Of a stretch of 64,000 nt of DNA, positions 3,708 through 63,899 are shown piece after piece. How positions within the stretch are numbered: the first letter of the stretch is position 1; each line of letters starts with the position of its first letter. Source of the stretch: Candidatus Bathyarchaeota archaeon. GTDB lineage: Archaea; Thermoproteota; Bathyarchaeia; 40CM-2-53-6. The stretch spans positions 505,289 to 569,288 of the forward strand of contig CAWIHH010000004.1 of NCBI GenBank assembly GCA_963835925.1, in the 5' to 3' direction. Below the pieces are notes generated by a model. That model worked only from the letters and a program-made list of their open reading frames with translations, did no database searches and had not been told where the DNA came from. The position numbers were made by a program, and so were the translations under genes.

Positions 3708-5276
3708 CTAAGTAAGACTCTCATGCGCAGGTCTTGAGAATCGATATACGTAGAACATTAGGATGCAGAAAATGAGGTACCCTATTGTAATCGCTAGAAC
3801 ACTTTGCTGAGCGGTCACCAATGGGTAAGTCTTCGATAGCGGTTCTAGATTTACGTAATTTTGATAGGCCCACGAATTCACAGTGTCCTGCGAAGCGGGG
3901 TCTATCGTCACTATACCTCCTCCTCTAAGAAAAGCTACGTCCATGAACTTCGCCAACACGCCCAACGGGGCGATTGAAGCAGCAATCGGAATGAGAATAT
4001 ATCGCCCCATCTTCATCTTTCTTGCAAGCAAGAATGCCACTGGAATGGCGACAACGAACGAAACAGGCGGCCATGGAACCCCACCATATTGTGCTGCGAG
4101 GTACCATTGGTTATGTGGCCCAACATAGAGCAGAATACCAATGCACGCCAAGGCAAAGAGGAGCACAGGTATTCGAAGCCTCATCTGGCCTTTCGAGTAT
4201 CGCCAGAGAGTAACCGAGATCAAGTAGCCTCCTAGAAGCACATATGCGGCCAGAACCCCCTGTGTTGGATAAGAAATGCTAGCGTCCAACGCTCCGAAGA
4301 CGGCGAGCGTCCACAGAACAAGACTGAGCAAGATCATCAATTGGATTACACGCCCCCGATTGTACTGCGGCCGACTATTCCTTGTGTCAAGATCGAGATA
4401 GTAAGCGACAGCAGCTGCTCCCATGAGCATCGCTCCAATCACACCGAGATGCCAGAGTGGGCTCACAGTTGAGGTTAAACTGGCGGCCAAGCCTCCACCA
4501 GTGCTTCCCATTAGGCCGAGCGCGATTGTCGGCGTGAGTGTGTGGAAGATTGCAGCGTTCCAATACCCTATGATAGGTATCGGCGCTCCAAAAAATAATC
4601 CAGTTTTGAAACACCACGTGGCCTGAAATCTTAACCGATGCCCTGCTTCACCGTCGACCACATTCCGGTAACGCAGCACGGCAACTGCTGAGAGGATAAG
4701 CGATGCGGTGAGAGAACCAGCCAGAAACATTTTCAAAGTCAGAGGCAACCAGGCTCGATTCACCATCAATGACAACTGCCCACCCCAACCCAGACTATCA
4801 GGCCTCAAAACGGCGATGACACCTTGGGGCAGTTGTGGTGCGAGCGTGTACGTATGAATTAGCATGAAGGCAAGAATGGCCCCCGCAGCGAATACACAGA
4901 CCAGAGAAGCAAGAAACAAATGCGCCCTCTTATTCTCATTAAGGGCGCTCCACGTCCTCGTGTAGAATGTAACCAGCAGTAGTTCAATGATAAACAGGCT
5001 GGTCATTAGGATTAAGGGCTTACTGAAGACAGCCGGGTCGAAGAAAGATGATAATGCTGTTGGCTGCATAATCGCGGAAAAAATCAATCCCATTGAGAAG
5101 ATGAGCGCAACCGCGAGGGATACTTGTCCCAGCTTCGCGAACAAGTAGCCGCACTCGTCGTATTCCCGCACTCGCGCGTAAACACCTATCACTTCACTCA
5201 ATGTCGCGAGGTATGCGGAACCCACGCCGACTATCAGGAAAAAGAAGAAGACCAGATATAGAACGGTATCAAGCAA
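3708..5276 (-). CDS. Polytopic membrane protein of unknown function, first gene of the Rieske/cyt b operon
   Basis: 522 aa with about 14 hydrophobic segments. Its TAG stop directly abuts the GTG start of the Rieske gene. I recognise no cofactor motif. Confidence 0.6.
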   Translation of the reverse strand: MLDTVLYLVFFFFLIVGVGSAYLATLSEVIGVYARVREYDECGYLFAKLGQVSLAVALIFSMGLIFSAIMQPTALSSFFDPAVFSKPLILMTSLFIIELLLVTFYTRTWSALNENKRAHLFLASLVCVFAAGAILAFMLIHTYTLAPQLPQGVIAVLRPDSLGWGGQLSLMVNRAWLPLTLKMFLAGSLTASLILSAVAVLRYRNVVDGEAGHRLRFQATWCFKTGLFFGAPIPIIGYWNAAIFHTLTPTIALGLMGSTGGGLAASLTSTVSPLWHLGVIGAMLMGAAAVAYYLDLDTRNSRPQYNRGRVIQLMILLSLVLWTLAVFGALDASISYPTQGVLAAYVLLGGYLISVTLWRYSKGQMRLRIPVLLFALACIGILLYVGPHNQWYLAAQYGGVPWPPVSFVVAIPVAFLLARKMKMGRYILIPIAASIAPLGVLAKFMDVAFLRGGGIVTIDPASQDTVNSWAYQNYVNLEPLSKTYPLVTAQQSVLAITIGYLIFCILMFYVYRFSRPAHESLT

Positions 5277-5582: not shown

Positions 5583-6678
5583 TTAGGTTTTCTTGGTTGC
5601 GGTTGTTAGTTTGGTTGTTGGGATGATTTTCGCAGCGACCACGTAGGCGGCGACTAGGATTACGAAGAAGACGCCTACCACCATGTAATCGAAGCCTTGT
5701 GGAATCATGGCTGGGAAATAGGTTTGAGGAGTCAAATCAGCCGCCTCAGGAACGCCCACAGAGACCACCAGGTACCGCACCAGCAGTCCGCCCGTTAATA
5801 GTAGGAGGCTGCTGATGGCTGCGAGCAACGGAAGCCTGCCACCATTCTTCACACCCAACCCTAGCAGAGCTATGGGAAGTATGAGACCTGCAACAATCAA
5901 ACCACCCCAGAACAACACCGAGAACGAACCCGACGTCAGGAGCATTCTAGATTCTAGTGCTGAAGGCACCATACCAGCCGTCACAGTGTAAAAGAACAAC
6001 ACAGCCAACACGAAGACACCAAGCGCAAGCAAAGGCGCAACCAAACTTCTGATCATACCAGTTACCTGTTCATTCGCTTCACCAACACTACGCGCCTGGT
6101 AGACTCCGAGAACCATCACCGTCGCGGCAGTGCCCGTCATCAAAGCCACACCAATGAACAGCAACGGAAGCAACCCATTCTCCCAGAATGGGACATGGGC
6201 AAGACTCATGGCAACGCCTGGGTAGGTCATGACGCCAAGCGCTAGCACTGCACCGATGATCCCCAGCGCCCTTCGAAGCACAGTAGCCTTCTCTAATAGT
6301 TTGAACGGCCAAATCCACAACCCAATGTGTACCACTGACACGACCAAGAATGCTGTGATGAACACTGAACCAATCGCAATTAGGGAACCGAAGTTGCCGA
6401 AGACAGACATGAACCGTTCCGGACGCCCAAGATCCAACATCAGAAACAGCACGCCCCCAATCACCAGAGGAGCGCTAAGGAAGACACCGACCTTCGACGT
6501 GATCCTATTCCTCTCACCAAGATAGTCAGCTAAGACGCCTACAATGTACGCTCCGGCTCCAGCTCCGGCTAGGAAGAAGTCCCAGATCAGCAACCAACCC
6601 CACTCAGTCTGAACAGGAATCATGTTCTACAACTCCCCCTTGAAACCCACATAGTACACTGAAGGCCTCGTGCCAAGC
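5573..6678. repeat. Copy 1 of a ~1.1-kb apparently identical segmental duplication (C2 gene plus the 3' tail of B2)
   Basis: Same sequence as 11374-12479 at a constant offset of 5801 nt. The 346-aa proteins and the antisense shadow ORFs are identical. Confidence 0.85.
5583..6623 (-). CDS. NrfD/PsrC-type membrane anchor subunit C2
   Basis: 346 aa and multi-TM, with N-terminal WGWLLIWDFFLAGAGAGAY as in NrfD-family quinol-interacting anchors. It lies directly downstream of A2-B2. Confidence 0.85.
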   Translation of the reverse strand: MIPVQTEWGWLLIWDFFLAGAGAGAYIVGVLADYLGERNRITSKVGVFLSAPLVIGGVLFLMLDLGRPERFMSVFGNFGSLIAIGSVFITAFLVVSVVHIGLWIWPFKLLEKATVLRRALGIIGAVLALGVMTYPGVAMSLAHVPFWENGLLPLLFIGVALMTGTAATVMVLGVYQARSVGEANEQVTGMIRSLVAPLLALGVFVLAVLFFYTVTAGMVPSALESRMLLTSGSFSVLFWGGLIVAGLILPIALLGLGVKNGGRLPLLAAISSLLLLTGGLLVRYLVVSVGVPEAADLTPQTYFPAMIPQGFDYMVVGVFFVILVAAYVVAAKIIPTTKLTTATKKT

Positions 6679-7280
6679 GCCGGCTTCAACGGCATCGCCC
6701 GCAGTTTGATGATCTCCTGTGAGATTTGACTATTCGGATCATCCAGATCACCGAAAACCCGCGCACGTCCTAGGCAAGTGTTCACGCAGGATGGGGTCGC
6801 GTCCCGGTCCACACCGGGTTTAAGGCCGTTCTTCACGCCCGCATCAACACGTTGAACACAGAACGTACACTTCTCCACGACGCCTACTTGGTGTTGCGCG
6901 TATGCTCGGTTCTCCCAAGCCGTTAGGCCTGATGGATAATAGCCCTCAATGCTAGCCATGAAGTGACGTGCTGCGTATGGACATGCTTGCATGCAATACT
7001 TGCATCCGATGCACTTGTCATAGTCCACCAGCACAATCCCGTCAGCCCGCTTGTGACTCGCACCTGTTGGGCAGACCGCGACGCATGGCGCATTCTCACA
7101 GTGCATACACAACGTCGGAATATAGAACCTCCCGGTGTTGGGGTACTTTCCGGTCTCACCTTCAATTGCTGCAGCCCAAAATATGCCTTTAGTAGTCTTG
7201 TTCTCAGCTTTGCAGGCGGATGTGCACCCATAGCATCCGATGCAACGGGACAGTTTAATCAACATGCCATAATGTGTCAT
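6627..7280 (-). CDS. Four-cluster [4Fe-4S] ferredoxin subunit B2 (PsrB/DmsB-like)
   Basis: Cys groups are CIGCYGCTSAC, CMHCENAPCVAVCP, CIGCKYCMQACP and CTFC..CVNTC. Confidence 0.9.
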   Translation of the reverse strand: MTHYGMLIKLSRCIGCYGCTSACKAENKTTKGIFWAAAIEGETGKYPNTGRFYIPTLCMHCENAPCVAVCPTGASHKRADGIVLVDYDKCIGCKYCMQACPYAARHFMASIEGYYPSGLTAWENRAYAQHQVGVVEKCTFCVQRVDAGVKNGLKPGVDRDATPSCVNTCLGRARVFGDLDDPNSQISQEIIKLRAMPLKPALGTRPSVYYVGFKGEL

Positions 7281-7290
7281 TGCATCTCAC

Positions 7291-10030
7291 CTAAGCCTTG
7301 TATACCCTCACTTTGACATCGTTCTCAAGCGCGTCGGTGAGCTTGTCAGTGTATTCAAGCTTGTCAGGCCTCATGGCTTGGTGTGGAAGTCCAAGATGTC
7401 TATTGTTGAGGTCCTTGACTACAGAGTTTCCAGCCCAGCGGCCGAAGTGACGACTTACCGCGATAACCTTTGGGTGAATCGCCTGTGAAAGCTTCGCATA
7501 TCCTTGGCGCTTGTCTTGCTCTGACTCAACCCAGATGAGGTCTCCATTCGTGATTCCTTTGTTCTTCGCTGTGTTGTCGTTCATCCAAACGTACAGTCCG
7601 TACGGATCAAGCTTCTCCCCTATATCAGCAAGCCATGGGATGACCTCTGTGCACATGTAGCCACCAGTGTTCTGCAGGTAGGCGATCTCGATCAGATCGT
7701 AAGGCGGGGTGTCCGTGTGGATGTGGCTTGGGATCCATGTCGGAAGTGTGGCGTAATCCGCATAATCCCAGGCCACACCGTTCTTCTCCAATGTCTGCCG
7801 CAACTGGTCGGCGACTCGCTTGTGCACCTCCACGTAAATCGGTAGCCGCTGCTTCTTGGTCTTATACCACTCATACACAGCATCGCAGCTTGTCTTGTCT
7901 GCTGCACTCACGCCTCCGTTCTGCTTCCACCAGTCTAGACCTTTGCCGTTGGTGCTCTTGCAGATCGTGCTCGAAGATTTGCTCGGTTGTGTACTTCGTG
8001 TTCAAGTCCAGTTTATAGGGGTCTTTGAGGCTGCCGTTAGCCAAGTCGTTGAAGCCACCTTTACCGTATAGAACACCTGTCCTGTCGCATATTTCGACAA
8101 AGACATCGTAAATGTGCGGTATTGGGTTGAGCGGCTCGACGACCGGCTGCTCCAACCAGTTGTTGAGTTGATATTCTTCTAGGTAGCATCTGTCAGGTAG
8201 AACTATGTCTGCAAGGTCGGTGGGTTCCTCAAGCCAGATGCATGACAGAGCGAGGAACGGGACTGTGCTTAGGACCTCGGCCATCGTGCTGACGGCGTAC
8301 ATGGATAACATGCCGTAGGCATGGCCGAAACCGAATTCGATGCGGTGCGCTTTCCCAACGTTCCAGTAGTCGTTGGGGTTCGCCATTGTCAAGAGTGACA
8401 GTGCGCCTTTGTGGTCTCCGAATGGGAACAACTCATCCAGTTCGACTGTCTTAGGTGGAAAAACATTGTTCCATGTTTTTTCTCGTGTTACACTGTAGGC
8501 AGCCGCTGGATGGGGAATCAGGCCGTCCTGAGTGGTCTTCCACTGAACATCCGCCTGAGGATTCGTCGCATATGTCGGTAGATAGGAATTTGGCATCATA
8601 CAGCTAGATCCAGGTGTGTCCCACGCGCCCACGATCGTAAGCAGCATCATTATGCTCCATGAGTTGGCAAATCCATGCACATGGTTTGATGGGTTTGACC
8701 CAAAACTCGCTGCCACAGGCCTGTAGGCGCGTTCGACGCCGTTAACGATTATCGTGCTTCCTATTTGAGCCGCTTGAGCCCACTCGTTCGCTATGCGGCG
8801 TATGGTTGCTGCGGGCACGGTGGTTATGGGCGCAGCCCATTCCGGCGTCATGGGTTTGACCGAGTCTTTCAGAAGTTGCCACGATGGACTTGTGTTCACG
8901 CCACCAACTGTGAAGCTGCCCTCAATCGCATAGTCCTTGATTGTCTTATCATCGAATGTCTTAGCCTTATTATCAACTGGATCCCAAACTAGTGGTTTGT
9001 TGGTCACAGTATCTCGGGCGTAGTAGCCGTTGTCAGCTCGGACAAGGTAGGGGCCGTCTGTCCACTTCTTTATGAAATCCACGTCATAGATACCAAGCTC
9101 ATGAATGAGCACGTTTAGCATTCCCGACGCGAAGGCCCCGTCGGTCGCGGGATGGATGGGGACCCATTCGTCAACGATGTTCCCCCCATACGATCGGTTG
9201 GGAGTTAATACAACATTCCTGGCGCCCTTGTCGTGTGCGTTTGCCAATAGTTCACCGAACGCGATAGAGTCATAGACGAAACCGTTCTCCCTTCCGAAGA
9301 TGATCTGGTATTTGTTGTGTAGGTAGTCGGTGTTGCCAACAAATCCGCCATGCGCCACCCTATGGATATAGTGTAGGATGTGGCCGCACCAGTTCATCCC
9401 CATGTCTACTGAATAGCAATTCCCCGTCATGGCGGTGTTGAAAGCTGACCGAAGTGAACTCTGGCTGTAGTTCATTCGCCCAGCGGTGTTGAACCACACC
9501 GTGCCGTCTTTGCCTTTTGCCATGACCTTCTTTGCTTGTTCAGCGATAGTGTTGTATGCTTCGTCCCAGCTGATCTCAACCCATTTCGGATCAACGCCAA
9601 TCCCTTTCTGCGGATTCGTCCTCTTCACTGGAGTCTTGACTCGGTAAGGATCGTAAACGTAAAAGTGCCCTGCACTCCCTCGAGCACAGAGCTTTCCATT
9701 GGTCGCGGACGGACTTCCAGTACTCATCGACGGGTCTCCGTCAATCTTGTCGATGATTCCGTTCACAACGTGGACTTGTATGCAATCAAGCGTCGAGCAG
9801 ACTCTGCACATGCTTTTGATCCATTGGTCCTGTTGAGCTGCTGTGGGGGTTGCTCCAGCCACCAGCACCTTCAACGGTTCGTTCAGCGCAAAGTCAGTGA
9901 CTGCTGCGACTGTTCCAAAAGTTGCTGATAATTTTAGAAAGTCTCTTCTGGAAATTGATGCTTTATCTCGCTCCGAATTCCTACTGACTATCTCTTGTTT
10001 AGACAATTTCTTATTTCCTATTCCTATCAT
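7291..10030 (-). pseudogene. CISM catalytic subunit A2 (Psr/Phs-like, Tat signal), split by a 1-nt indel near 7960
   Basis: ORFs 7871-10030 and 7291-7911 overlap. The upstream frame reads ..TTEQIFEHDL. After one orphan base, the downstream frame reads KSTNGKGLDWWKQNGG.. and matches A4. It has an SRRDFLKL signal and a CRVCSTLDC..KLC motif. The start may be the TTG at 10006. Confidence 0.85.
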
Positions 10031-42987: not shown

Positions 42988-44193
42988 TTGGATATGAATC
43001 CGCTTTATCTCTCAGGTTTCAACGTGTCACTCAACGTAGATCGAGCAAGACTCGTTATTCGGGATGGCATTCACGAACCAGACATTGAACCAGAACAACT
43101 TGACGTTCAACCACGCCATGCGCATTTCGACTCAGTCATAATTGACGGACATTCAGGTACGATTAGCCTTGATGCGATCAAGTGGCTAATGCGCCACGGC
43201 ATCCCGCTGTTTGTTCTCGATTATAATGGAACACTCCTATCTTCGACATTGCCAAGGGACCCTGTTAATGGTCCATTGAAAATTGCTCAGATATCAGCCT
43301 ACAATGATCCTGAAACAAGAATGAACATCGCCAAGAAATTCATTGAAGCAAAATCGCAAAGGACAGTAGAAGAGCTCAGCTGGCTATCTGACAAGCACGA
43401 AGATCTAGACACACACGAGGTTGAATCTGAAATCGCACGAATAGCTGAATGCGACAGCTTGCCGAAACTAATGCAAGTTGAGGGGCACATTGCAGACCTG
43501 TACTCGCGACAGTTGCAACGGATTCTCCCACAGAAGCTGGGATTCAATTCAAGAGTGCACGAGTCACGTCAAATGAACGCATCCGACCCAATCAACTGCT
43601 TACTCAACTACGGATACGCGGTTCTAGAATCAGAATGCCGCAAGGCCATTAACAGCGTTGGGCTAGAGTCTACAATTGGTTTTCTGCACGAAGCTCAGCA
43701 ATCCAAGTATCCACTCGTTTATGATCTGCAGGAGCCGTTCAGATGGCTCATCGACATTACTCTGATCGAATGCTTAGAGTACAAACGTTTCAGCAAGAAA
43801 GACTTCTACAGGCTCGACAACTATGTCCTTCGATTGAAACCTGAAACAGCAAAGAAGCTACTAGCCGCGTTACAAATCAAATTCAACTCAACAACCCGCT
43901 ATAGGGGCAAGTTGTACGGTTGGGATACCGTGATGAGGCTGAAATGTCAGGAACTGGCGAGTTACATTCTCGGTAGACGAAGCGAACTCGATTTCGATAA
44001 TCCGCGGCCAGAATTGCCGAGAGACGATTCCGAAGCTGTAAGGAGTAGAATATTGTCCATGTCTTGCGCCGAAGCTAGAGAGCTTGGGATAAGGAAGAAC
44101 ACGCTCTGGTACATGCAACAGCGAGCCCGAACCGGCAAACCCATCAAAATCTACAACCAAGTCAGAAAGAAGCTGCCATGCGCATCTGTCTGA
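42988..44193 (+). CDS. cas1: Stand-alone Cas1-family integrase with a C-terminal HTH (casposase-like architecture)
   Basis: It has GTISLDAIKWLMRHGIPLFVLDYNG, VEGHIADLY, ASDPINCLLNYGYAVLE and GFLHE..LVYDLQEPFRWLID, then a tail AEARELGIRKNTLWYMQQRARTG. The likely ATG is at 42994. Confidence 0.85.
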   Translation: MDMNPLYLSGFNVSLNVDRARLVIRDGIHEPDIEPEQLDVQPRHAHFDSVIIDGHSGTISLDAIKWLMRHGIPLFVLDYNGTLLSSTLPRDPVNGPLKIAQISAYNDPETRMNIAKKFIEAKSQRTVEELSWLSDKHEDLDTHEVESEIARIAECDSLPKLMQVEGHIADLYSRQLQRILPQKLGFNSRVHESRQMNASDPINCLLNYGYAVLESECRKAINSVGLESTIGFLHEAQQSKYPLVYDLQEPFRWLIDITLIECLEYKRFSKKDFYRLDNYVLRLKPETAKKLLAALQIKFNSTTRYRGKLYGWDTVMRLKCQELASYILGRRSELDFDNPRPELPRDDSEAVRSRILSMSCAEARELGIRKNTLWYMQQRARTGKPIKIYNQVRKKLPCASV

Positions 44194-44401: not shown

Positions 44402-47400
44402 GTGAATGTGGGGCAAAGAAGCCGAGTCCGAAAATTCCTCCGCAACACCACAACAATGACAGCTTCCGGGAAAGCGAAACCCAAACGTGGCAGACATACT
44501 CCCCCCTGCTCCGACGTCAGGGCGCAAGCAGATGCAATCGAGCGTCTGGCTTCCTTTCCTGAGCTGAATCCGAACCCAGTCATTGAGGTGGATTCTGCTG
44601 GCAAAATCACCTACCGAAACCCTGCAACCGTTGAGACGCTGATAACGCTAGGCCTAGAGGATAACCCGAAGGCATTCTTGCCCAGAGACATGAACGAGAT
44701 ATTGGATGATCTAAAGCAGAAGAAGAAGAAGAAGAGCGAGTTCTACCGCGAGGTGCGGTTAGGGAATGCAATATTCGGCGAGACTTTTCACTTCACTCCG
44801 GACTACGGTGCTGTGCGCATCTACGCAACCGACATGACCGAACGCAAGAGGGCAGAGGTTGAGCTTCGAAGACAACGAGAAGAACTACAGACCATATTCG
44901 ACTCAGTGCCGGCGATGATATTCCAAGTGGACGGGAAGCATAGGCTTGTCCACGTCAATAGAGCGTACGTTGACGCGGTCGGCTTACCCAAGGAGAAACT
45001 GGAAGGCAAGTCAACCCGTGAGCTCTTCCCTAATCAGGCGAACAGGTATTGGAGAGACGACGAGGAAGTAATGACGTCAGGACGACCGAAAAAAGAGATA
45101 GTTGAGCCGTTCGAGACGCCCACAGGAACAAGATGGGCCCAGACAGACAAGACCCCATACAGAGACGCGACAGGTAATATCACTGGCGTATTGGCGTTTG
45201 CACTCGACATCACCGAACGCAAGCGGGCGGAAGGGAAGCTGCGGGAAAGTGAGCAGCTCTATCGTACTCTGGCCGAGTCATCCCCAGACGATATCATCAT
45301 TGTCAGACGGGACTCCAGTCTCCAGTACATGAATAGAAGCGGATTGAAACACTTTGGACTCACCCTAGAAGAGATAATTGGAAAGAAGGCGTCAGATCTC
45401 TTCCCACCGGAAGCGGCTAAGAGAGTGGGTGTTCCGGTATCAACAGTCCTTCAAACGGATGAACCAATCCATACTGAAGAGGAAGTGTCGTTTCCAGACG
45501 CCGTTTCCTGGAGGGATGAGCATTGGCTCCCCCTAAAAACAGGAAGCGAAACGACTGCTGTTCTCGTAATATCGCGCGACGTCACCGAACGCAAACGCTT
45601 GCTGGACGAGGTGCAGGAGAGAGAGAAGAAGTATCGCACTCTGATAGAGCAGTCGCTGCAAGGAATACTGGTAGCACAGGGGATTCCTCCTCGCTTGGTC
45701 TTCGCTAACCCCGCTATCGCGAAGTTCCTCGGGTATACTCCAGATGAGTTAACATCCCTCTCGCCTAAGCAAGTTGAGGAACTGGTGCACCGTGAAGACC
45801 GCGAGACCTTCTTCAGCCGTTTCAGAGAACGACTGCAAGGCAAACCTGTACTGTCGTCCTACGAGTTCCGCGCTATACGAAAAGGAGGTGAAGTACGCTG
45901 GCTGGAGGTCTCCGCAAATAGGATAGAGTACCAGGGACAGCCAGCCGTGCAAGCAACATTCGTAGACATCACCGAACGCGTCAGGCATGAAACTAGGCTG
46001 CAGACGTTACACGATCACGCGTCGCAACTCGGCTCAGCGAATGACATTGACGCTATCGTCAAGTGCACTCTTGATGCAATGGGGCTTACGCTTGGATTCG
46101 AACACGCCGACTTTCTGTTAGTGGAGAACGCTGCTCTACAAATGAAGGGGAGGAGAGGTCTTCCAGTAGTTTTCTCAGCGCAGCCATTGAATGGGCGCGG
46201 GTTAACAGTCAAAGCCACGAACACGAAATCGACGCTCAGAATATCCGACACCCGAAAAGAACCCGCCTACGTTGACCCTAAAGGGTACGATTGGACTGGA
46301 CCTCCCACCGTGCTTTCGGAACTGATCGTGCCCGTGTTTACATACAGTCAAGTGGTTGCAGTTCTATGTGTTGACAGCACGCGAACAGACAACTTCAACG
46401 ACGATGATCAGAACCTTCTCGAAACATTAGCAACACATGTAGGGGCAGCGCTTGGCCGCCTGAGAGATGTGGAGAGTCTCAGGAAAAGCGAGGCGATGTA
46501 TCGTCGGCTCTTTGAGTCAAGTCAAGAGGGCATAATCATTCTCGACGCGGATACGCTGAGGATCCTTGATTCTAACCCCTTCTTGCAGAGGCTGTCCGGC
46601 CTTTCCCTCGACCAGCTTCTGGGGAGGGAACTCCGGAAAATTGAAGCATTCAACGATGTTAAGGGCCTGATTGATGTGGAGGAGTTGCGGCAGAAGCCTT
46701 TCCTCCGCCTAGAGCCAACTCCCATCGAGGCCAAGGAAAGGGGAAGTGTGGACGTAGAATTCGTCAGCACCGTCTACGAAGCTGACGGTAGAAAAGTGAT
46801 TCAATGCAACATCCGCGATGTCACCGAGCGAACGAAGCTGCAGAAGGAGCTTCAACACCACGTAGAACATTTAGAAGAGGCAGTTCAAGAACGGACTCGA
46901 GAGTTGCGAGATAACGAGGAACGGTATCATCTGCTCGTAGACAATACCGAGACTGGTTTCGTGGTGGTTGATGACAAGGGCATTGTGATTGAAGCGAATG
47001 AGCCCTACTTACGCTTGGTTGGTGCAGGGACCATGAAGGAGATCATCGGTCATTCGGTGATTGAGTGGACTGCGCCTGAGGAAAAAAGTCACAACGCCGA
47101 AGCGGTTGCCTTATGCGCTCGGCAGGGATACATACAAGACCTCGAAACTACCTATCTGCAGAGCAACGGGACGCACGTTCAACCTTCTTATCAACGCTAC
47201 TTTGCAGGAGACATCGAACGGAAAAATGCTCACCGCGCTCTGCCGCAATGTGACTGAGCGTAAACGGCTGGAGAAGATGAGGGACCAGTTCATCTCCACG
47301 GTCACACATGAGCTACGTACTCCCTTAATCTCCATCAAAGGCTACGTGGATCTTACTCTTTCAGCTGAGCCGGGACAGATATCCAAGGAGGTGGAGTCCG

Positions 47401-50984: not shown

Positions 50985-51383
50985 TTGACCGGAGCATCTG
51001 GACAAGATACCTCGAAGGCCCAGGGCCCGGTAAGTGTCATGATTCCACTTTCAGAGCCAGATAAAACAGTCGTTAGAGTCAGAGACTTGATGACTCAAGC
51101 ACTAATTTCTATTGACTTAGAGAGAAACGTTATGGAAGCTGCCAGATTGATGACTGAAAAACATGTGTCTTCCATTCTCGCCTCCCAGAGAGGAAAACTA
51201 TTGGGCATAATCACAGATCACGACATAATCAGCAGAGTTGTAGCGAAAGGACTGAACCCGAACGAAGTTAGCGTTGCTAGAGTGATGAGTTCTCCGCTGA
51301 TAACAGTCAGCGATGAAGAGACAATTGACGAGGCCGCGAAAGGAATGGCTGCCCAGAAAGCAGGCCACGAACTTCCTGCTTGA
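50985..51383 (+). CDS. CBS-domain protein whose second CBS domain appears truncated
   Basis: The first CBS is VRDLMTQALISIDL..LLGIITDHDIISRVV. The second ends at ..AAKGMAAQKAGHELPA stop, missing the usual VV..G.LVGI.T..D strand. Confidence 0.65.
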   Translation: MTGASGQDTSKAQGPVSVMIPLSEPDKTVVRVRDLMTQALISIDLERNVMEAARLMTEKHVSSILASQRGKLLGIITDHDIISRVVAKGLNPNEVSVARVMSSPLITVSDEETIDEAAKGMAAQKAGHELPA

Positions 51384-51384
51384 C

Positions 51385-52485
51385 ATGGTAACTGAACTTG
51401 AAAAACAGAACCGAAGTGGGAGCTACATTTCGAATTGTGTTAAGCCGGTGAAAAGCTGGCTAGAATTCAATGGGATTCAGGTACAGCAGCGGATCAAGAT
51501 CGCTAGACGTGATGAACTCGTAAGGACTGCGGACGAACGGCCACCAACACCCGAAGAGCTGAAACGCATCTTTGACATGGCAGATTTTCGAACACGTGTC
51601 GCCTGCGCACTAGTCGCCTTCAGCGGAGTCAGAATAGAAGTCATAGGTAACTATCTGGGAAAGGATGGGCTTCAGTTACGTGACTTTCCTGAACTCAGCA
51701 TCAAGGACCGCAACGTGGAGTTCTCGAAGATACCCACTCTGATACTTGTTCGGAAGAGCCTTTCCAAAACTAGGAACCAGTTCTTCACATTTCTGAGCGA
51801 AGAAGGTTGTGAATACCTGAAAGAATACTTGGAATTTAGACTGATGACAGAAACGCTAACGCCCAACTCGCCGGTAATCACCCCATCTAAGCATGCCCTT
51901 TCAGGAAAACATATTCGCACAGTGAATGTCAGCGACTTGATCCGAAAACCAATCCGTGCAGCAGCATTCAAATGGAGACCATACGTGCTAAGGAGATACT
52001 TCGACACACGACTGATGATGGCAGAATCTGATGCCCTACTCATCAGAGATTACCGCATTTTCTGGATGGGGCACAAGGGCGACATGGAGCACACTTACAC
52101 GGTAAACAAAGGCCTTTCACAAGATGTAGTGGAGAAGATGCGAGAGTCCTACGCAAAGGCTGCGGCGAAATATCTCCAAACCAAGAAATCCGAAGCTGGC
52201 GAAGACAAGATCAAGGAAGCGGTCAAGAAGCATCTGTTGGAAGTCGTGGGCTTCACTGAGAAAGACTTCGCCAAGCGGGACCTAAACAAGATGTCGAACG
52301 ATGAAATCTTGGACTTGATGAAGCAGAAGTTAACTGGCACTAGTGCGACAGATGGTACGAATGGGTCGAAAAATGGAGCAAAGCAGAAGGTGATCCCCAA
52401 CGGTCAACTGGAACAGTACGTTGAGGGCGGCTGGGAATATGTTGCAACCGCAGGCGAAAAGATCGTAGTAAAAATGCCAGCTTAA
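51385..52485 (+). mobile_element. Tyrosine recombinase / integrase
   Basis: Catalytic elements are FSGVRIEV (Arg), LRRYFDT (Arg) and FWMGHKGDMEHTY (His..Tyr). The ATG at 51385 follows the CBS stop by one base. Confidence 0.8.
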
Positions 52486-52529: not shown

Positions 52530-52577
52530 CCGGTAAACAGGGGCGGGGGAGGGGATTTCAGCCCCAATTTACCGGTA
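52530..52577 (+). repeat. Hairpin repeat copy A: CCGGTAAA..GGGGATTTCAGCCCC..TTTACCGG
   Basis: The 28-nt core AGGGGATTTCAGCCCCAATTTACCGGTA matches copy B (57326-57353) with 1 mismatch. Confidence 0.7.
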
Positions 52578-54213: not shown

Positions 54214-54320
54214 AATCAATCCCTACAGGGTCCGGACACTAAGCTCCTCATTCCCATTCCTCTTCCTCATCATTGACATCATCATCAACATCGTCGTCTT
54301 CCACATCGTCATCAACATCG

Positions 54321-54350
54321 TTCATCATCATTCATCATCATTCATCATCC
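54321..54350. repeat. Three tandem copies of a 10-nt unit TTCATCATCA within a CAT/CGT-rich tract (54260-54350)
   Basis: Read directly from the sequence. The minus strand would encode an Asp/Glu-rich peptide. Confidence 0.8.
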
Positions 54351-57160: not shown

Positions 57161-57325
57161 GTACCGTATTGCTGGCGGCTGACTATTTTCGACTTGCGTT
57201 CCGAATTAGCGTTAACCATTCGTTGCTACTCCCAAACTGGTGTGAGTAGATTCGAACCCTGCTTTTCCACGTCCGTTGTGACTGCCACGATCTTCATCTA
57301 TGGTACTCGCTCAAGAAAATGGGGT

Positions 57326-57353
57326 AGGGGATTTCAGCCCCAGTTTACCGGTA
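57326..57353 (+). repeat. Hairpin repeat copy B
   Basis: AGGGGATTTCAGCCCCAGTTTACCGGTA. Confidence 0.7.
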
Positions 57354-57658: not shown

Positions 57659-57756
57659 CGCAGAAACACGCGTAGGCTATTGCTTTTCAGCCGATTCTAA
57701 AGGTTCCTCCTTCGAGTGATTGTTCATTTGCGCTTAGCCAGACTTCAGAGATGGTT

Positions 57757-57781
57757 AGGGGATTCCAACCCTACTGTAACC
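57757..57781 (+). repeat. Diverged hairpin repeat copy D (GGTTA-GGGGATTCCAACCC-..-TAACC)
   Basis: It has the same stem-in-stem layout and partial sequence similarity to copy A. Confidence 0.4.
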
Positions 57782-58563
57782 TTAGGCTGAGAAGATCGAG
57801 TTGGTCCTTCGAGTGACTGTCCAGAGTTCGGAACAGTTTTAGTTAATTGATGCCCAGAGGATTATAGGAGCCAACAAGTAGTCAAATCCCAACATGCGGA
57901 GTGGCCAGTATGCCTTCATTGCAGCGCGAATAATCTTCTGCTTGAACAATCCTAGATGGGTCTTTCTACGTATTGATGGAAACATGTGCGCCATGATTCT
58001 CTGCTCGTAGGATCCCTTGGCTCTGACGCTCATAAGCGGTGTTCAAGAGATCGCACTATTTCGAGAAACAGATTATGTCGAAAACAGAATATTCACAAAC
58101 TCGACACATGCACTCAACACATGCAGAATAATAGAAACACCGCTCGAAGAAAGGAACACTTCACCTAGGGCACCATCCAGCTGGATCGGCGCGGATATGC
58201 GTTTGATGACCAAGTCGGAACCATGAACGCAGCTGAATGTGTCGGAATTTGTAACGCGAACTTATATCGAATCAACCACAAGTCGAGCGAATGTTCGACT
58301 CAATCAAACGGTTCATTGTGGGCTTGAAAGTGCCTTTCCTCGTATCAATAATCACCAGCGCCATATCGATAATGGCAATCTATTTTCTCCACCCCTAGAT
58401 GCGAGGTAAAATGTCATCCGCAGGGCTAGCCGAACGAATGACACATGATAGTGTTTGTCTGTTCACGTGTCAGGTCAACGTCATTAATTGTCGTCTTTCT
58501 CTCTCGTGAATTCTTCGCCTTCCGGTTTCAGTAGCGTCTATGTCGTTCGAGTGGGACACGTAT

Positions 58564-59108: not shown

Positions 59109-59165
59109 ATCTCATCGTTGAGAAGTGTGTCGGCCTTTAAAGCGTAATTATCGGAATTCACGTAC

Positions 59166-59190
59166 GTGGGTTTCAACCCCAATCTACCGG
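59166..59190 (+). repeat. Diverged hairpin repeat copy C
   Basis: GTGGGTTTCAACCCCAATCTACCGG matches copy A at about 21 of 28 positions. Confidence 0.45.
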
Positions 59191-59717
59191 CGCGTTGGAG
59201 ACCAGATTTGCAGGTCGATTGGATATGGATCAGTCGTCATTGCCAGTATTCTGAGCGAAGGGCTTTTGAAGTCAATCATCCAGCATCTAATCAGGTGGAA
59301 TGAGTCAGAGCAGGCGTTGAGGTGGGTGCGAGTCCCACCTCCCGGCGCCAAGAGACCAACTGTGACTTTCACAGGACTTTTTGCCCATCAATGTGAGTAT
59401 TAATGACGTTCTAAGTGGTATTTCTGTGGCAGTAGACGTCATGCATGACTGCTTCCACTTGTTATTGCCCTTGACACTGCCACCGCTAGCCTACTGGATT
59501 GATCGTATTCCGTCTGGTCCGTTGTCCCATCTTCTGCCGCACTCCTCACAGGCGTAACTGAGGATAGTAACATAGTTGGCTCCCTTCCACATCTCGGTTC
59601 TGGCGGTACAGGGCATCCACTCATGGCAATATGGACAATCCAGCTAAGCCACCTGCGTTGCGAAGATTAGTCCGAAGTCACAGACAGGTTTGTTTTCTGA
59701 ATCTAGGTCGTGGCTGA

Positions 59718-60413: not shown

Positions 60414-60884
60414 TCACGTATTGACAGAATTCTCTCCCTGAGTTATCAGTTCACGAATTTCTGGAGTCTCAAGTCCCCATGCCGCGAGCCTAATTCGAAC
60501 GATGTCTTCATCAATACTGAGATAGTCTGGGACGTAGTCTTCTTCAGTCCATGTGAGTACGTGAGCAAGTTCATGTGCCAACGCATAGGTTCTGAAGCCC
60601 TTGTCTGCTTTCATAAAGGGCGGAAATAATTCGATTAAGTAATTGTTATCCCCGACTCGGCTTGGCCGTGCGCTTCTTTTTCGGCTGCGGCCTACCTTCA
60701 CGACGATATTCACCTCACGGAGCACCTTCCTATCGTATTCGTGCATTCGCGGCAAGATTTCTGTAATCGCGCCGTTTACATCGGTTCCAAGCTTACCGCG
60801 TACTGCAATTCTAAGCTGCGGCAAATCGACATCTTTGTTCTGAACGAAATCGACCAAAGCGCTTTTCGTACGCTTACCATCCAT
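60414..60884 (-). CDS. Putative Zn-metalloprotease (HExxH)
   Basis: YALAHELAHVL motif. I cannot assign a family. Confidence 0.45.
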   Translation of the reverse strand: MDGKRTKSALVDFVQNKDVDLPQLRIAVRGKLGTDVNGAITEILPRMHEYDRKVLREVNIVVKVGRSRKRSARPSRVGDNNYLIELFPPFMKADKGFRTYALAHELAHVLTWTEEDYVPDYLSIDEDIVRIRLAAWGLETPEIRELITQGENSVNT

Positions 60885-61120
60885 ATGGCTTTCACTTCCC
60901 TACCTGCCATGGTACGTAATGTGAATTTTCAAGTAGAATGCAAGAATTCCTGAATAAGAATCAGTCAAAGGGCACCGGATTTAGAGTTCCAACTCCGTTT
61001 CAATCTCGGCAACGTGAAGGCCTTCAACCCTCGACTTTGATGACGCTCTTCAGCGAGTAATGGCCTTCTTCAGCAAACCCCTAGGAGGGCGGAGCACGCA
61101 TTTGGCGCCTTACTGAACCG

Positions 61121-61197
61121 CAAACGATCAACAAACCGAACCCAAACCCGCCAACAAACCCAGAACAAACCGCCCCGCATCCCGTCCGCAAACCGCC
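61121..61197. repeat. Iteron array L: about seven CAAAC(C/G)-centred units at 11-12 bp spacing
   Basis: CAAAC occurs at 61121, 61132, 61143, 61155, 61166 and 61189. Confidence 0.75.
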
Positions 61198-61275
61198 ATA
61201 TTCAGCGTAACCTCGAAGCCAAACTCGAATTCCCACCTTGAAGAGAAGAAATCCCATTCCGGGACGGCATTGCGT

Positions 61276-61345
61276 CGCGTTTGCGCCGCTTTTGCGGAAT
61301 GGTTTGGGGTAGGTTTGGGGGCCGTTTGCGGGAGCTTTGCGGCCT
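61276..61345. repeat. Iteron array R: six GTTTG(C/G)GG units at 11-12 bp spacing, inverted relative to array L
   Basis: (G/T/C)TTTG occurs at 61279, 61290, 61302, 61313, 61324 and 61335. Confidence 0.75.
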
Positions 61346-61504
61346 CTTTGTTGCTGAAAAAGTGGAAGATAAGCGGCTTGGCCGGCTGGCGTCGTTCGGC
61401 TAGTGCTGTGGCCGGTCGCACTCGTAGTAGGGACAGCCTTGTACGGTGCACTTGGCGCCTGTGAGGGGCTGCTGCTAGTAGTAGACGACGTTAGGTGTTG
61501 TTAG

Positions 61505-61555
61505 CTGTTGTTTGTTCATGTTTGCTGTCGTTCGGGTTTGTTCTTGTTTGTTAGT
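61505..61555. repeat. Third, looser GTTTG(T/C)T array
   Basis: GTTTG occurs at 61510, 61520, 61536 and 61546. Confidence 0.5.
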
Positions 61556-61920
61556 AATGTTCCGATTCGTTCCTTTCTGTGCTCATTTTCTGGGCTTTGG
61601 TGTGTTGACATGCAGTGATCATTCATGCTTTAACACGATGAAACTGGGATTGCAAGTGGTAAGTGTTCTAGTTTGGGGAGCTTGCATGGTGTTGTGGGTG
61701 GAATAGGGTGTGTTAGGTGAAGGTTTTCTGGAAGATTCAGGCGCATCTTCGAGGAGGAGATCCAATACGAACTTGGGAGTGCGTTGCCCATCCGCCAGTA
61801 ACTGGCTGGTTGACTGTGGACAGGCTGCTCGGCTGCTCTCTTTTGCCGTCTACTTGACTGGGACACTTGGTTGGAGGTGTTTGATGGCGCAGTGTGGTTG
61901 TCATATTGTCCTTGTGTATG

Positions 61921-62733
61921 CTATTCTGTGTAGTTGCAGTTGGCCTCTGTGCATCGCCATCCTAACGCCCCTGGGAAGGCGGCTAAGGGGCCAAATTTCA
62001 GGTCCGTACTGTGTTGGGGGCATTTTCTCCATGAGATTTCTGTTTGGTTCTTGAACTCTTGGAAGTTGTCTTTGGTTAGTCCAGCTTCGATGAAGCCGCT
62101 GAGTAGTGCTCGTCTCTGGTCCTGGTTTAGCTTTTTCGGGTTCTTGAGGAAGGGTAGGATGGATTCTTTGTTTCTTTGTTTTAGTGAGTCGGCTATGTAT
62201 TCTGCGGTGCTTAGTCGTATTCGAGGTACGAGGGCTCCGTGCTTCTTCAGTTCTACGATCACTAGGTCTACGATTGTCTGCTCGATTATTTCGGAGTAGG
62301 GTTGTTCGGTGGGGTCGTTTGACAGCATGTTAGCTATGTGCTGCTGGTGTTGTCGTAGTAGGTGTTTGTCTCGTCCCAGTACTCCAAGAACCCAATAGGC
62401 TGGAGTCAGATATTTCTCAATCTTTTTCCGCTCTTGCATGTCTTTGGCTAACTGCTCGGTGATGCTGAGACGTCGTTTCTGCAGGTCGTGCACGTCGTCT
62501 ATGAGGTGATCACGCTCTGCCTGGATCGCGTTCCTTAGCCCTGCAGCAATGTTGATTTCGTCTATGATCTGGAGCTTTCTTCTTGTCTGAAATGATACTC
62601 CCTCTTCCAATTCATTCTTCCTCTGCAGCAGTGTTACGTTGCTGCTCAGCTGCAATGCGACTTGCGCGGGGTCGCCTCCTCTGGCTTTAACCTCCGCGAG
62701 AACCCTTCTGATCATTTCCACATCCGTGTCCAT
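61921..62733 (-). CDS. Hypothetical helical protein with a C-terminal Cys/His zinc-finger-like tail
   Basis: 270 aa, ending ..WRKCPQHSTDL..WRCTEANCNYTE. Confidence 0.45.
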   Translation of the reverse strand: MDTDVEMIRRVLAEVKARGGDPAQVALQLSSNVTLLQRKNELEEGVSFQTRRKLQIIDEINIAAGLRNAIQAERDHLIDDVHDLQKRRLSITEQLAKDMQERKKIEKYLTPAYWVLGVLGRDKHLLRQHQQHIANMLSNDPTEQPYSEIIEQTIVDLVIVELKKHGALVPRIRLSTAEYIADSLKQRNKESILPFLKNPKKLNQDQRRALLSGFIEAGLTKDNFQEFKNQTEISWRKCPQHSTDLKFGPLAAFPGALGWRCTEANCNYTE

Positions 62734-62771: not shown

Positions 62772-63899
62772 TCAAGTTTTGATCCCTGCTTGACGCAGCT
62801 CAATTCGGAACAACTTCGTATCCTCGATATCTTGCAACGTCATCTCTTCCTCTGCAAGCTTCTTCTCGACCCGCTTGTTCGATTCTTCAATTCTTGCATT
62901 TGCGTCTGCTTCGGCGCGTTGGACCAGATCCTTGGATGCTTGAATTCGAGCGGCCGCTTCCGCCTCAGCTACGCGTGCTCGTCGTTCCGCCTCCTCCTCG
63001 TCCCTTTCGGCCTGCGCACGTTTGCTTTCTAAGTCGATGATCGTTTTGTTGAGGCCGTCAGCTTTCTCTGCGCGGCTCTGGAGTTCGTCGCCCAGATTTT
63101 GAACCATGGTTGACAGAGTTGGCGTGTTCAGAATTAGGCCCGCCACAAAACGAGGGTCATAGCCGAGTTTCAGCATTTCTTCAAAGAAGGCTCGTGCTTT
63201 GCCGACGTTTGACAAATCGACTCCAACAACGCCATGCATGTAGTTGCGGTCAAGTTCGTAGCGTCTGAGCGCCTCATCCGTCTGCCCTGCCTTCGCTAGC
63301 CGGTCTTCGATGGCATCGAGCTGTAGCTGTTTGCTTTGGATCGTTTGATTGAGTTGGAGTTCCTGGCTCTTCAAAGGAGCGATTCGACTTTGCAATTCCG
63401 TTTCTTCTACTCGGCGCCTCTGCACCTCCACCGTCAAGTTGTTGTACGTTGCTTCAATGCTCTCAATGCCTAATCCGCTCTCCTTCTCGCGCCGGTAAAT
63501 CCTCGCAATCGCATCGGCGTATTCTTCAACTGGAAATTCGGGAGTTTTCAGTTTGACTGCAGCATCCACAATATCCCAGATCTTCTCCGGGTCCAGCTTC
63601 AAGCCCTTGAATTTGCCCGCTAGTGGCAGGGCCCGAAAGCAATCAGTCGGAGTGATGCCAGTCTTCTTCATGGCTTTCGCAAGTTTGGCCAGTTCGACCG
63701 CATCCAGCAGATCGTCCTTCTCGAGCGTCTGCGAGAGCCCGTCCGCCTGGGTCTTCGCCACAAACCCCTGCCAGATGGTATTCACGGTGGGAAGCGAAAT
63801 GTGCTCTTTCTCCGCGGTCTCCCTCTGGGTTAACCCCTCGTACAAAATGTCGACGATCACACGTCGCCTGGCCACTTCAGATATCTCGTTGCCAGTCAT
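62772..63899 (-). CDS. N-terminal HTH plus long coiled-coil protein
   Basis: 375 aa with EGLTQRETAEKEHISLPTVNTIW (HTH-like). The C-terminal third is E/A/R-rich heptad-like sequence. Confidence 0.5.
   Translation of the reverse strand: MTGNEISEVARRRVIVDILYEGLTQRETAEKEHISLPTVNTIWQGFVAKTQADGLSQTLEKDDLLDAVELAKLAKAMKKTGITPTDCFRALPLAGKFKGLKLDPEKIWDIVDAAVKLKTPEFPVEEYADAIARIYRREKESGLGIESIEATYNNLTVEVQRRRVEETELQSRIAPLKSQELQLNQTIQSKQLQLDAIEDRLAKAGQTDEALRRYELDRNYMHGVVGVDLSNVGKARAFFEEMLKLGYDPRFVAGLILNTPTLSTMVQNLGDELQSRAEKADGLNKTIIDLESKRAQAERDEEEAERRARVAEAEAAARIQASKDLVQRAEADANARIEESNKRVEKKLAEEEMTLQDIEDTKLFRIELRQAGIKT

Follow-up and report, generated by a model that had tools for sequence, protein, structure and literature searches.

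Opposed, helically phased repeat arrays beside a helix-turn-helix/coiled-coil gene pair of Bathyarchaeia: a candidate protein-docking site

What purpose could be served by two arrays of short repeats, spaced by about one turn of the DNA helix and set in opposite orientations in a gap between genes, in an archaeon? The question is raised by a 64,000-nucleotide stretch of the Candidatus Bathyarchaeota archaeon assembly GCA_963835925.1 (contig CAWIHH010000004.1, positions 505,289 to 569,288; hereafter the window), in which such arrays lie beside two genes, here called A and B, that encode a helix-turn-helix (HTH)/coiled-coil protein and a zinc-ribbon protein. Soils and sediments are rich in Bathyarchaeia, archaea that have not been cultivated and for which, to our knowledge, descriptions of a plasmid, origin or centromere are lacking. 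An initial annotation of the window proposed that the arrays form a replication origin or a partition site of an integrated replicon. We find that the arrays are real, non-coding and non-random, that their association with the A–B pair is, judged by sequence comparison, conserved across independent lineages, and that the core of the repeat seems to track the recognition helix of A. We lean toward the reading that the arrays are a cis-acting docking site for A and B, an iterated operator- or centromere-like element that would control or keep a small mobile cassette.

The elements of the array region, in window positions, are the following.

61074 to 61197, minus strand: left array, period 11–12 bp; about 7 units, whose minus-strand reading is GGTTTG(C/G/T)(G/T)G.
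61198 to 61278, no strand assigned: spacer between the opposed arrays, 81 bp, guanine-plus-cytosine (GC) content 0.51, not AT-rich.
61279 to 61357, plus strand: right array, 7 units of (G/T/C)TTTG(C/G)GG, period 11–12 bp.
61490 to 61556, plus strand: third array, 10-bp period, GTTAG/GTTTG units, T-rich, GC 0.39.
61049 to 61358, no strand assigned: secondary motif flanking the arrays, TTCAGC at 61049, 61069 and 61201, with its complement GCTGAA at 61353.
61098 to 61110, plus strand: first copy (GCATTTGGCGCCT) of a bracketing direct repeat, whose second copy (GCACTTGGCGCCT) lies at 61448–61460; 12 of 13 positions are identical.
61128 to 61451, minus strand: open reading frame of 107 amino acids (aa) across the arrays, spurious.

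In the left array, CAAAC begins on the plus strand at 61121, 61132, 61143, 61155, 61166 and 61189. The starts, read directly, give steps of 11, 11, 12, 11 and 23 bp, exactly the spacings of the initial annotation. The 23-bp step is filled by one degenerate unit (GGATGCGG), and further copies of CAAAC occur within the array at 61074 and as a stray in the spacer at 61220. TTTG starts in the right array at 61280, 61291, 61303, 61314, 61325, 61336 and 61347, in steps of 11, 12, 11, 11, 11 and 11 bp. Phased plus-strand units had been recognized here, but there is one more of them than was counted, and the sequence GTTTG, attributed to all, is exact in just four of the seven; the rest read TTTTG or CTTTG. 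Aligned in one orientation, the 13 strong units give the consensus (G)GTTTG(C/G/T)(G/T)G, followed by 2–3 free positions. With left units in minus-strand and right units in plus-strand orientation, the arrays face away from the spacer, whose length of 81 bp agrees with the approximately 80 bp first given. Composition inverts at the spacer as well, the plus strand being rich in C and A in the left array (T 8%) and rich in G and T from 61279 to about 61920 (A 6–17%). GC content is 0.58–0.60 in the two arrays, with a window mean of about 0.50, and falls to its value of 0.39 in the third array, 130 bp away. That third array, noted earlier as a looser one, does exist, although it begins at 61490 and its period is 10 bp. 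Its units are, in order, GTTAGGTGTT, GTTAGCTGTT, GTTTGTTCAT, GTTTGCTGTC, (GTTCGG), GTTTGTTCTT and GTTTGTTAGT, and it is similar to the TGTTC/CGTTCGG units of the array in a related locus, L036 (below). The direct repeats said to bracket the whole structure are also present, but with about 0.13 such pairs expected by chance in a 900-bp stretch their significance is marginal. No promoter-like element is evident in the spacer, on which no promoter scan was run, the available model being one of bacterial sigma-70.

The longest chains at 10–12-bp spacing have 7 (TTTG) and 5 (CAAAC) members in the window versus a maximum of 3 in 200 order-2 Markov sequences of 64 kb, and no other chains of the array motifs occur elsewhere in the 64-kb window. 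The arrays sit in a 1,035-bp intergenic gap (60885–61920) both of whose flanking genes are on the minus strand. Since no protein repeat could have a period of 11 bp, the 107-aa reading frame is an artefact, as had been suspected from the start; it is unannotated in the source, absent from a collection of 15 billion proteins and without a Pfam or PHROGs match or a counterpart in related loci.

Three flanking genes enter the argument.

62772 to 63899, minus strand: gene A, 375 aa; N-terminal HTH head, helical domain, and long coiled coils with a small globular insert.
61921 to 62733, minus strand: gene B, 270 aa; short helical head, coiled coil of about 100 residues, globular region, and C-terminal CHCC zinc ribbon.
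60414 to 60884, minus strand: gene for a 156-aa HExxH protein whose match to SprT-like proteins is weak; same strand as the left array, 190 bp downstream of it.

Arrays beside A–B were found in the following related loci, some of which carry an additional gene, C.

L036: TGTTC in 7 copies at 10-bp steps (6449–6517), opposed by copies of GAACA (6575–6605), about 125 bp upstream of A.
L042: TTCA(GC) in 8 copies at 9–10 bp (4128–4190), opposed by 4 copies of TGAA (4265–4304), beyond gene C.
L046: the L042-type core TTCA(GC) in 7–8 copies (6675–6733), with the inverted core at 6813–6842, beyond gene C.
L043: ATTCG in 6 copies (7708–7764), opposed by 5 or more copies of CGAAT (7788–7947), reaching the start of A.
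L127, where A and B are fused: TTCG in 5 copies at 9–10 bp (1367–1406), of ambiguous orientation because several units hold a palindromic TTCGAA, beyond gene C.
L050, whose A is 23% identical: GTCGTCA in 3 copies, opposed by 3 copies of TGACGAC (a shorter, 3+3 version), just upstream of A.

Spacers between the opposed arrays measure 53–87 bp across the loci, with GC contents of 0.37–0.52. A chain of at least five units of a 4-mer lies within about 1.3 kb of A–B in six of the seven lineages with usable flanks. Such chains (at 9–12 bp) occur at a rate of 1.47 regions per 100 kb, mostly inside coding sequence, in 1.22 Mb of control DNA taken from other fetched loci; this corresponds to about 0.044 chains per 3-kb neighborhood and to a binomial P of about 5e-8 for six lineages of seven. 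The supposition that the adjacent HTH/coiled-coil and zinc-finger proteins belong with the arrays is thus borne out by the co-occurrence of the pair and opposed phased arrays in independent lineages.

The core of the repeat is not constant. L043 and L127, whose recognition helices are HSSSTVQRVI and HSTSTIQSII, both have the core (A/T)TTCG. The helix of L042 is CSIGTAHSHT and its core TTCAGCA, which is also the core of L046; the A head of L046 is frameshifted, and the helix taken for it, CSVGAVHRRV, is borrowed from a relative, P0016, of the same sub-family (P0015/P0016). Recognition helices and cores of L036, L050 and the window are each unlike all others. A core that appears to change with its reader, while period and layout stay, is the signature of a protein–DNA recognition site and not of RNA or junk. 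Some non-coding sequence is also shared. TTCAGC, a flanking hexamer in the window and also found in its spacer (61201–61206), is the main array core in L042 and L046; ATATTCAGCGT of the window spacer is present in the L042 array region; the sequence at which the right array starts, CTTTTGCGGAATGG, is kept in L042 and L046. Short matches of this kind between the window and L042/L046 (ATATTCAGCGT, CTTTTGCGG-A-TGG) occur despite protein identities of 35–45%.

An exhaustive phmmer search recovered 41 members of the A family at E≤1e-3 and 25 at E≤1e-10, several of them full-length at 27–37% identity, and A and B of the window are singletons when clustered at 90% identity. A word-indexed protein search with A and B returned the self-match alone, and profiles added little, the candidate list being filled by coiled-coil noise; relatives of A or B were found neither in GTDB representative genomes nor in viral contigs. 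For A, B, C and the 156-aa protein, searches of Pfam, PHROGs, NCBIfam, PADLOC and PDB sequences gave no known family, being negative or returning generic or weak HTH and coiled-coil matches. In a 22-member set of the A family, Pfam reports HTH_23 in 6 members and HTH_38 in 4 (best 1.7e-7), and generic coiled-coil families cover the rest. The AlphaFold2 model of A residues 1–156 is an all-helical head with a predicted local distance difference test score (pLDDT) of 81, whose best Foldseek matches are of LuxR/GerE/sigma-4 type and MarR-like; the model of B, made from a 3-sequence alignment, has a pLDDT of 62, and below 50 in the globular part.

B directly follows A in every recovered contig, with a 4-bp overlap in several loci. 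In two relatives, P0006 and P0021 (639 and 626 aa), the two are fused, and the B-like half ends in a CxxH...CxxxxC zinc ribbon. Because these members run unbroken from A into the B-like half, A and B can be regarded as one functional unit. Besides A–B, the lineages have in common gene C, in one sub-family, and, in three lineages, an integrase, but nothing else. Gene C is placed between the arrays and A and is divergent from A; its product has an N-terminal winged-HTH-like segment followed by helical repeats, matches no family and is absent from the window. Copies of C encode 247–294 aa (L042 4322–5086, L046 6864–7748, L127 1586–2329) and are 38–52% identical between loci. The 156-aa gene of the window holds the position relative to the arrays that A holds in L036, L043 and L050, and it is therefore possibly under their control.

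One lineage departs from this pattern. In L038 (9342–12405) and L039 (3317–6569), A lacks the HTH head and only weak GAGGGCTC/GAGCCCTC repeats are found; a ribbon-helix-helix (RHH)/PIN toxin–antitoxin pair precedes A, and fragments of an IS200/605 TnpB (Cas12f1-like_TNB) follow B, so that the module here seems to be in decay. Both this lineage and L042 have HEPN/nucleotidyltransferase pairs close to the module.

How might such a site work? We infer not only that A and B bind the arrays but also how their complex would be built and that it would act in repression and maintenance. One HTH head of A would read each 9–11-bp unit, and with one unit per helical turn the heads would be displayed on one face of the DNA. 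The long coiled coils of A, together with its partner B, could then connect the heads on the two opposed arrays, producing a wrapped or bridged higher-order nucleoprotein complex. Such a complex would silence the adjacent promoter, which is that of A–B itself in L036, L043 and L050 and that of the 156-aa gene in the window, and it probably doubles as a centromere-like handle for the stable inheritance or tethering of a small mobile cassette.

Several observations sit uneasily with a docking site for A and B. The arrays of the window are downstream of B rather than upstream of A, and in L042, L046 and L127 gene C intervenes between arrays and A, so that in these loci C or another protein could be the array reader. 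No cassette holds a motor NTPase (nucleoside triphosphatase; ParA, ParM or TubZ), and most are set in chromosomal surroundings that would seem to have no need of a centromere. The sequence of A shows no homology to KfrA, ParR, StbA or pSK1 Par, Foldseek matched its head only weakly (E≥0.16), and the co-variation of helix and motif involves only about six lineages. The first two of these points, arrays downstream of B in the window and beyond C elsewhere, also argue against a simple auto-operator, as does the size of the site, well beyond that of ordinary operators. A bolder proposal, which we put forward tentatively and consider doubtful, is that A, B and the opposed phased arrays are a self-contained, NTPase-free maintenance module (a centromere, possibly also an origin) of an unrecognised Bathyarchaeia family of approximately 3-kb mobile cassettes and small integrative elements.

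The mobile character of the module bears on these possibilities through one further gene.

51313 to 52485, plus strand: tyrosine recombinase-like gene (integrase), 390 aa, 52%-identical homologues of which adjoin A–B in L043 and L050.

These homologues make the mobile-element context of the initial annotation plausible. In L043 the homologue lies about 240 bp after B, and the contig ends within it; in L050 it lies about 1 kb before A. In the window the integrase is about 8.6 kb from the arrays and about 9.4 kb from A–B, which converge on it, and its link to the arrays is uncertain. Most loci of the integrase family (L047–L126) have a tRNA gene (Gly, Arg, Ala, Val or Pro) 250–320 bp upstream on the same strand, which marks the family as genuine tRNA-targeting integrases of integrated elements; no such gene precedes the window copy, and no tRNA genes were found in the window. 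A–B accompany the integrase in 2 of 80 loci and are missing from the other 78. Conversely, cross-locus BLASTP (with L128 left out) found no integrase in the flanks of six of the nine A–B lineages (L036, L037, L038, L042, L046 and L127). In L042, L046 and L127 a cassette of about 3 kb, made up of arrays, C, A and B, lies amid unrelated housekeeping genes, and the L036 cassette is likewise among ordinary chromosomal genes without a nearby integrase. From the integrase-free cassettes and the 2 loci of 80, the module behaves as an independently moving cassette that is sometimes carried in integrase-bearing elements. The window ends 100 bp upstream of A, and its sole att-like feature is a 33-nt direct repeat (52545, 57321).

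Some further observations on these mobile neighborhoods may be recorded here. The integrase family has at least 342 metagenome relatives at 46–54% identity, many of them at contig ends, and none in IMG/VR viral contigs. The 33-nt repeat, GGGG(G/T)AGGGGATTTCAGCCCCA(A/G)TTTACCGGTA, occupies 52545–52577 and 57321–57353; the copies are 94% identical where none would be expected by chance, the first begins 60 nt after the stop of the integrase-like gene, and weaker copies occur at 57752–57784 and 59160–59192. As a tRNA fragment it was rejected, having no canonical T-arm fit, and it is not conserved beside the L043 integrase. In L127, at about 4421–4513, a tRNA-like sequence (GGGCCTGTAGCTCAGCATGG...GGTTCAAATC) starts 100 nt after the fused A–B gene; it seems to contain an insertion, which may be an intron, is truncated where the contig stops and is not called by ARAGORN. 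In L056 (5516–8188) the same integrase family occurs with membrane proteins and an 890-aa HerA/FtsK-like ATPase, to whose C-terminus a winged-helix and nuclease-like region is fused, which suggests a conjugative or plasmid-like element sharing the integrase family. A phased array in that locus falls inside the 890-aa ATPase gene and was dismissed as coding periodicity.

Other functions for the arrays have to be weighed against a docking site for A and B. They could be arm-type or architectural sites near a cassette end, at which A and B, as factors of integration or excision, would shape DNA for the tyrosine integrase. The 52%-identical homologues beside A–B, the tRNA-targeting habit of the family and the position of the arrays at the cassette edge, by unrelated chromosomal genes, in L036, L042, L043, L046 and L127 all speak for this, and archaeal coiled-coil and HTH accessory proteins are known to aid a tyrosine integrase (PMC5861418). 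Nevertheless, we think it unlikely, given how seldom integrase and A–B occur together in either direction of the comparison above. Moreover, both arrays are on one side, with no matching repeats at the other end, those of the window are internal, between B and the 156-aa gene and far from the integrase, and known directionality factors are much smaller than A or B. Quite unlikely, too, is an iteron-type origin of a small integrative plasmid or virus, in which A with B would be a non-enzymatic initiator that oligomerises on the iterons, distorts the DNA and brings in the MCM and primase of the host. Iterons that are phased and run in two orientations are typical of origins; the putative element in L043 seems to hold only integrase, B, A and arrays, leaving A–B and the arrays as the sole candidates for a replication module, and the T-rich third array could serve as an unwinding region. 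But neither the spacers nor the flanks are AT-rich, A and B are mostly coiled coil, and no Rep, MCM, primase–polymerase, Orc/Cdc6, HUH protein or helicase was found among the window neighbors or the related cassettes when A, B, C, the 156-, 99- and 70-aa proteins and other cassette genes were searched for initiator domains against the five databases named above. The cassettes of L036, L042, L046 and L127 have, furthermore, chromosomal genes around them and no integrase in the flanks examined. No family member is on any plasmid, phage or viral contig searched, blastn of 60885–61920 against 50,697 phage and 72,556 plasmid records gave no match, and the same iteron was not found in viral contigs. 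For a replication origin, then, nothing specific emerged, and of the two functions first proposed for the locus a partition-like site is the more defensible, by analogy only.

A decidedly unlikely alternative to a docking site with a maintenance role is a purely transcriptional operator, at which A would be a repressor whose many phased sites give very tight and cooperative control over one or more neighboring genes, with B as its co-repressor. The arrays directly upstream of A in L036, L043 and L050, and of the 156-aa gene in the window, are what this predicts, and KfrA-type proteins are strong autorepressors that act through iterated operators (PMC7783346). It fits less well that the arrays of L042, L046 and L127 border on the 3′ end of gene C, with no gene start opposite them, that 14–20 sites over more than 450 bp exceed ordinary operators, and that some 300 coiled-coil residues and a zinc-ribbon partner are excessive for a simple repressor. 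Highly improbable is that the repeats encode a non-coding RNA or long hairpin transcript, in which a CAAAC arm pairs with a GUUUG arm, or are functionless products of slippage. The arms are indeed partly complementary (repeat pair I1, 71% over 31 nt), and minimum-free-energy folds pair them. However, the folding energy of 61090–61370 is no better than that of shuffles on either strand (z −0.35 and −0.62), and Rfam gives no match to the arrays at the gathering threshold or at E≤1. The core varies across lineages while helical phasing and inverted layout are kept, which implies a constraint at the DNA level, and the conserved association with A–B argues against a junk repeat.

The window, which belongs to a contig of 1,355,405 bp, also holds many enzymes of the dimethyl sulfoxide (DMSO)-reductase family, PAS kinases and a solo Cas1. 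At least 5 paralogous molybdopterin oxidoreductase genes of the DMSO-reductase family lie within about 28 kb (13168–40742), and the Cas1 gene (42988–44193; TIGR00287, E 2.8e-56) adjoins a PAS-domain histidine kinase and not other cas genes. Repeats with a period of about 375 bp at 44825–45984, within the gene for a 951-aa PAS sensor kinase, are tandem PAS domains visible in the DNA. At 54235–54346 there is a strong 6/12-nt periodic repeat (CATCA/TGATG-rich), the sole other periodicity signal in the window and unrelated to the arrays. A VIT-family gene is 79–83% identical to Candidatus Bathyarchaeia metagenome-assembled genomes (MAGs) from soil and peat; in a comparison of gene order with Bathyarchaeia MAGs L001–L003, this gene was shared and nothing else. 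GC content is 0.45–0.47 from about 48 kb to about 60 kb and returns to 0.50–0.53 at 61–64 kb, and from about 57.7 kb the genes are short and mostly unmatched.

The locus offers a testable pairing in cis and trans, of a defined 280-bp DNA element with two proteins that have no annotated relatives. It comes with natural specificity variants, in which at least six different cores go with six recognition helices, a small body of co-varying data from which to study how the specificity of HTH heads changes. It also flags a large tRNA-targeting integrase family (more than 340 metagenome relatives) that is absent from the viral contig collection. Were the proposed maintenance module real, it would be the first candidate cis-acting inheritance element for Bathyarchaeia and a starting point for replicating or stably tethered genetic tools in these archaea.

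One known archaeal system that bears comparison concerns integration. The coiled-coil Orf2 and winged-HTH Orf3 of SNJ2 aid a tRNA-targeting tyrosine integrase (PMC5861418). As in L043 and L050, coiled-coil/HTH proteins are here combined with such an integrase on an integrated element of an archaeon. The SNJ2 factors, however, have just 111 and 141 aa and share a transcript with the integrase, in whose operon their genes lie, whereas A and B have 375 and 270 aa, are usually integrase-free and in the window are about 9.4 kb from the integrase. Phased arrays are a feature of the A–B system and are not known from SNJ2.

Centromere-like sites in bacteria offer other parallels. The Omega repeats are contiguous 7-bp heptads, read by an RHH protein that works with a ParA-type ATPase. 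On pSM19035, the small Omega protein coats direct and inverted short repeats, which double as a centromere and as operators for maintenance genes (PMC5016525). The two systems have short repeats of both orientations in common, but in the window the units are one helical turn apart and the proposed reader is an HTH/coiled-coil protein. The iterons of R1 parC are 11 bp long and all direct, the central segment carries a promoter, and ParR is an RHH protein working with the actin-like ParM motor. In parC, ParR, a small DNA-binding protein, coats each of two sets of five iterons cooperatively (PMC2241845). The arrangement of two iteron clusters around a central segment, and the 11-bp period, are closely matched by the approximately 7 units at 11–12 bp on each side of our spacer. 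In the window, unlike parC, the clusters are inverted and the proposed reader is again of the HTH/coiled-coil type; no RHH ParR-type adaptor or NTPase is found among the window neighbor genes or in the conserved cassette.

Proteins that dispense with an NTPase are also known. The Par protein of pSK1, for example, binds repeats near its own gene. RacA, pSK1 Par and RocS are NTPase-free HTH and coiled-coil proteins of tethering and segregation, each a single polypeptide in which an N-terminal head binds DNA, the central coiled coil serves oligomerisation and the C-terminus holds an anchor, and RacA binds repeated centromere-like sites (PMC11500499). Head, central coiled coil, repeated sites near the gene and the lack of an NTPase are all shared with the A–B system. 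The heads, however, are MerR-type winged HTH domains, whereas A hits HTH_23/HTH_38 and its model is weakly nearest to LuxR/GerE/sigma-4; the C-terminal anchor is an amphipathic helix or DivIVA-binding region, in place of which there is here a separate or fused zinc-ribbon protein; and there is no sequence homology to A.

The closest likeness is to KfrA and KfrC (RA3 IncU, RK2/R751 IncP-1). In KfrA of plasmid RA3 an HTH head is joined to a coiled-coil tail some 300 residues long, and the operator of the protein consists of five 9-bp repeats, three pointing one way and two the other, around kfrA's own promoter; KfrA forms complexes with the alpha-helical KfrC and has a role in plasmid maintenance (PMC7783346). 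The A family, too, combines an HTH head with a long coiled-coil tail, a second alpha-helical partner is encoded alongside (for a complex of A and B the support is genomic), and at least four short repeats, some inverted, lie around or near a presumed promoter. Both systems are on mobile DNA, and the link of KfrA/KfrC to stable maintenance is one that A and B may share. KfrA_N is not reported for the window A at Pfam E≤0.1, nor is it among the 25 most-hit of the 100 families listed for the 22 members. The A–B system differs in being archaeal, in having no ParA/ParB (IncC/KorB) neighbors, in its greater number of sites (7+7+6) in two separated arrays with a spacer of 53–87 bp, and in its zinc-ribbon partner, B, which is sometimes fused to A. 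The A–B site also varies in position, being upstream of A, downstream of B or beyond C. Phased short repeats coated by an oligomerising DNA-binding protein are already known from bacterial plasmids. What is new here is an unrelated archaeal protein family, to which the KfrA/ParR theme of bacteria would be extended, together with its split-or-fused zinc-ribbon partner, the inverted two-array layout and the Bathyarchaeia host.

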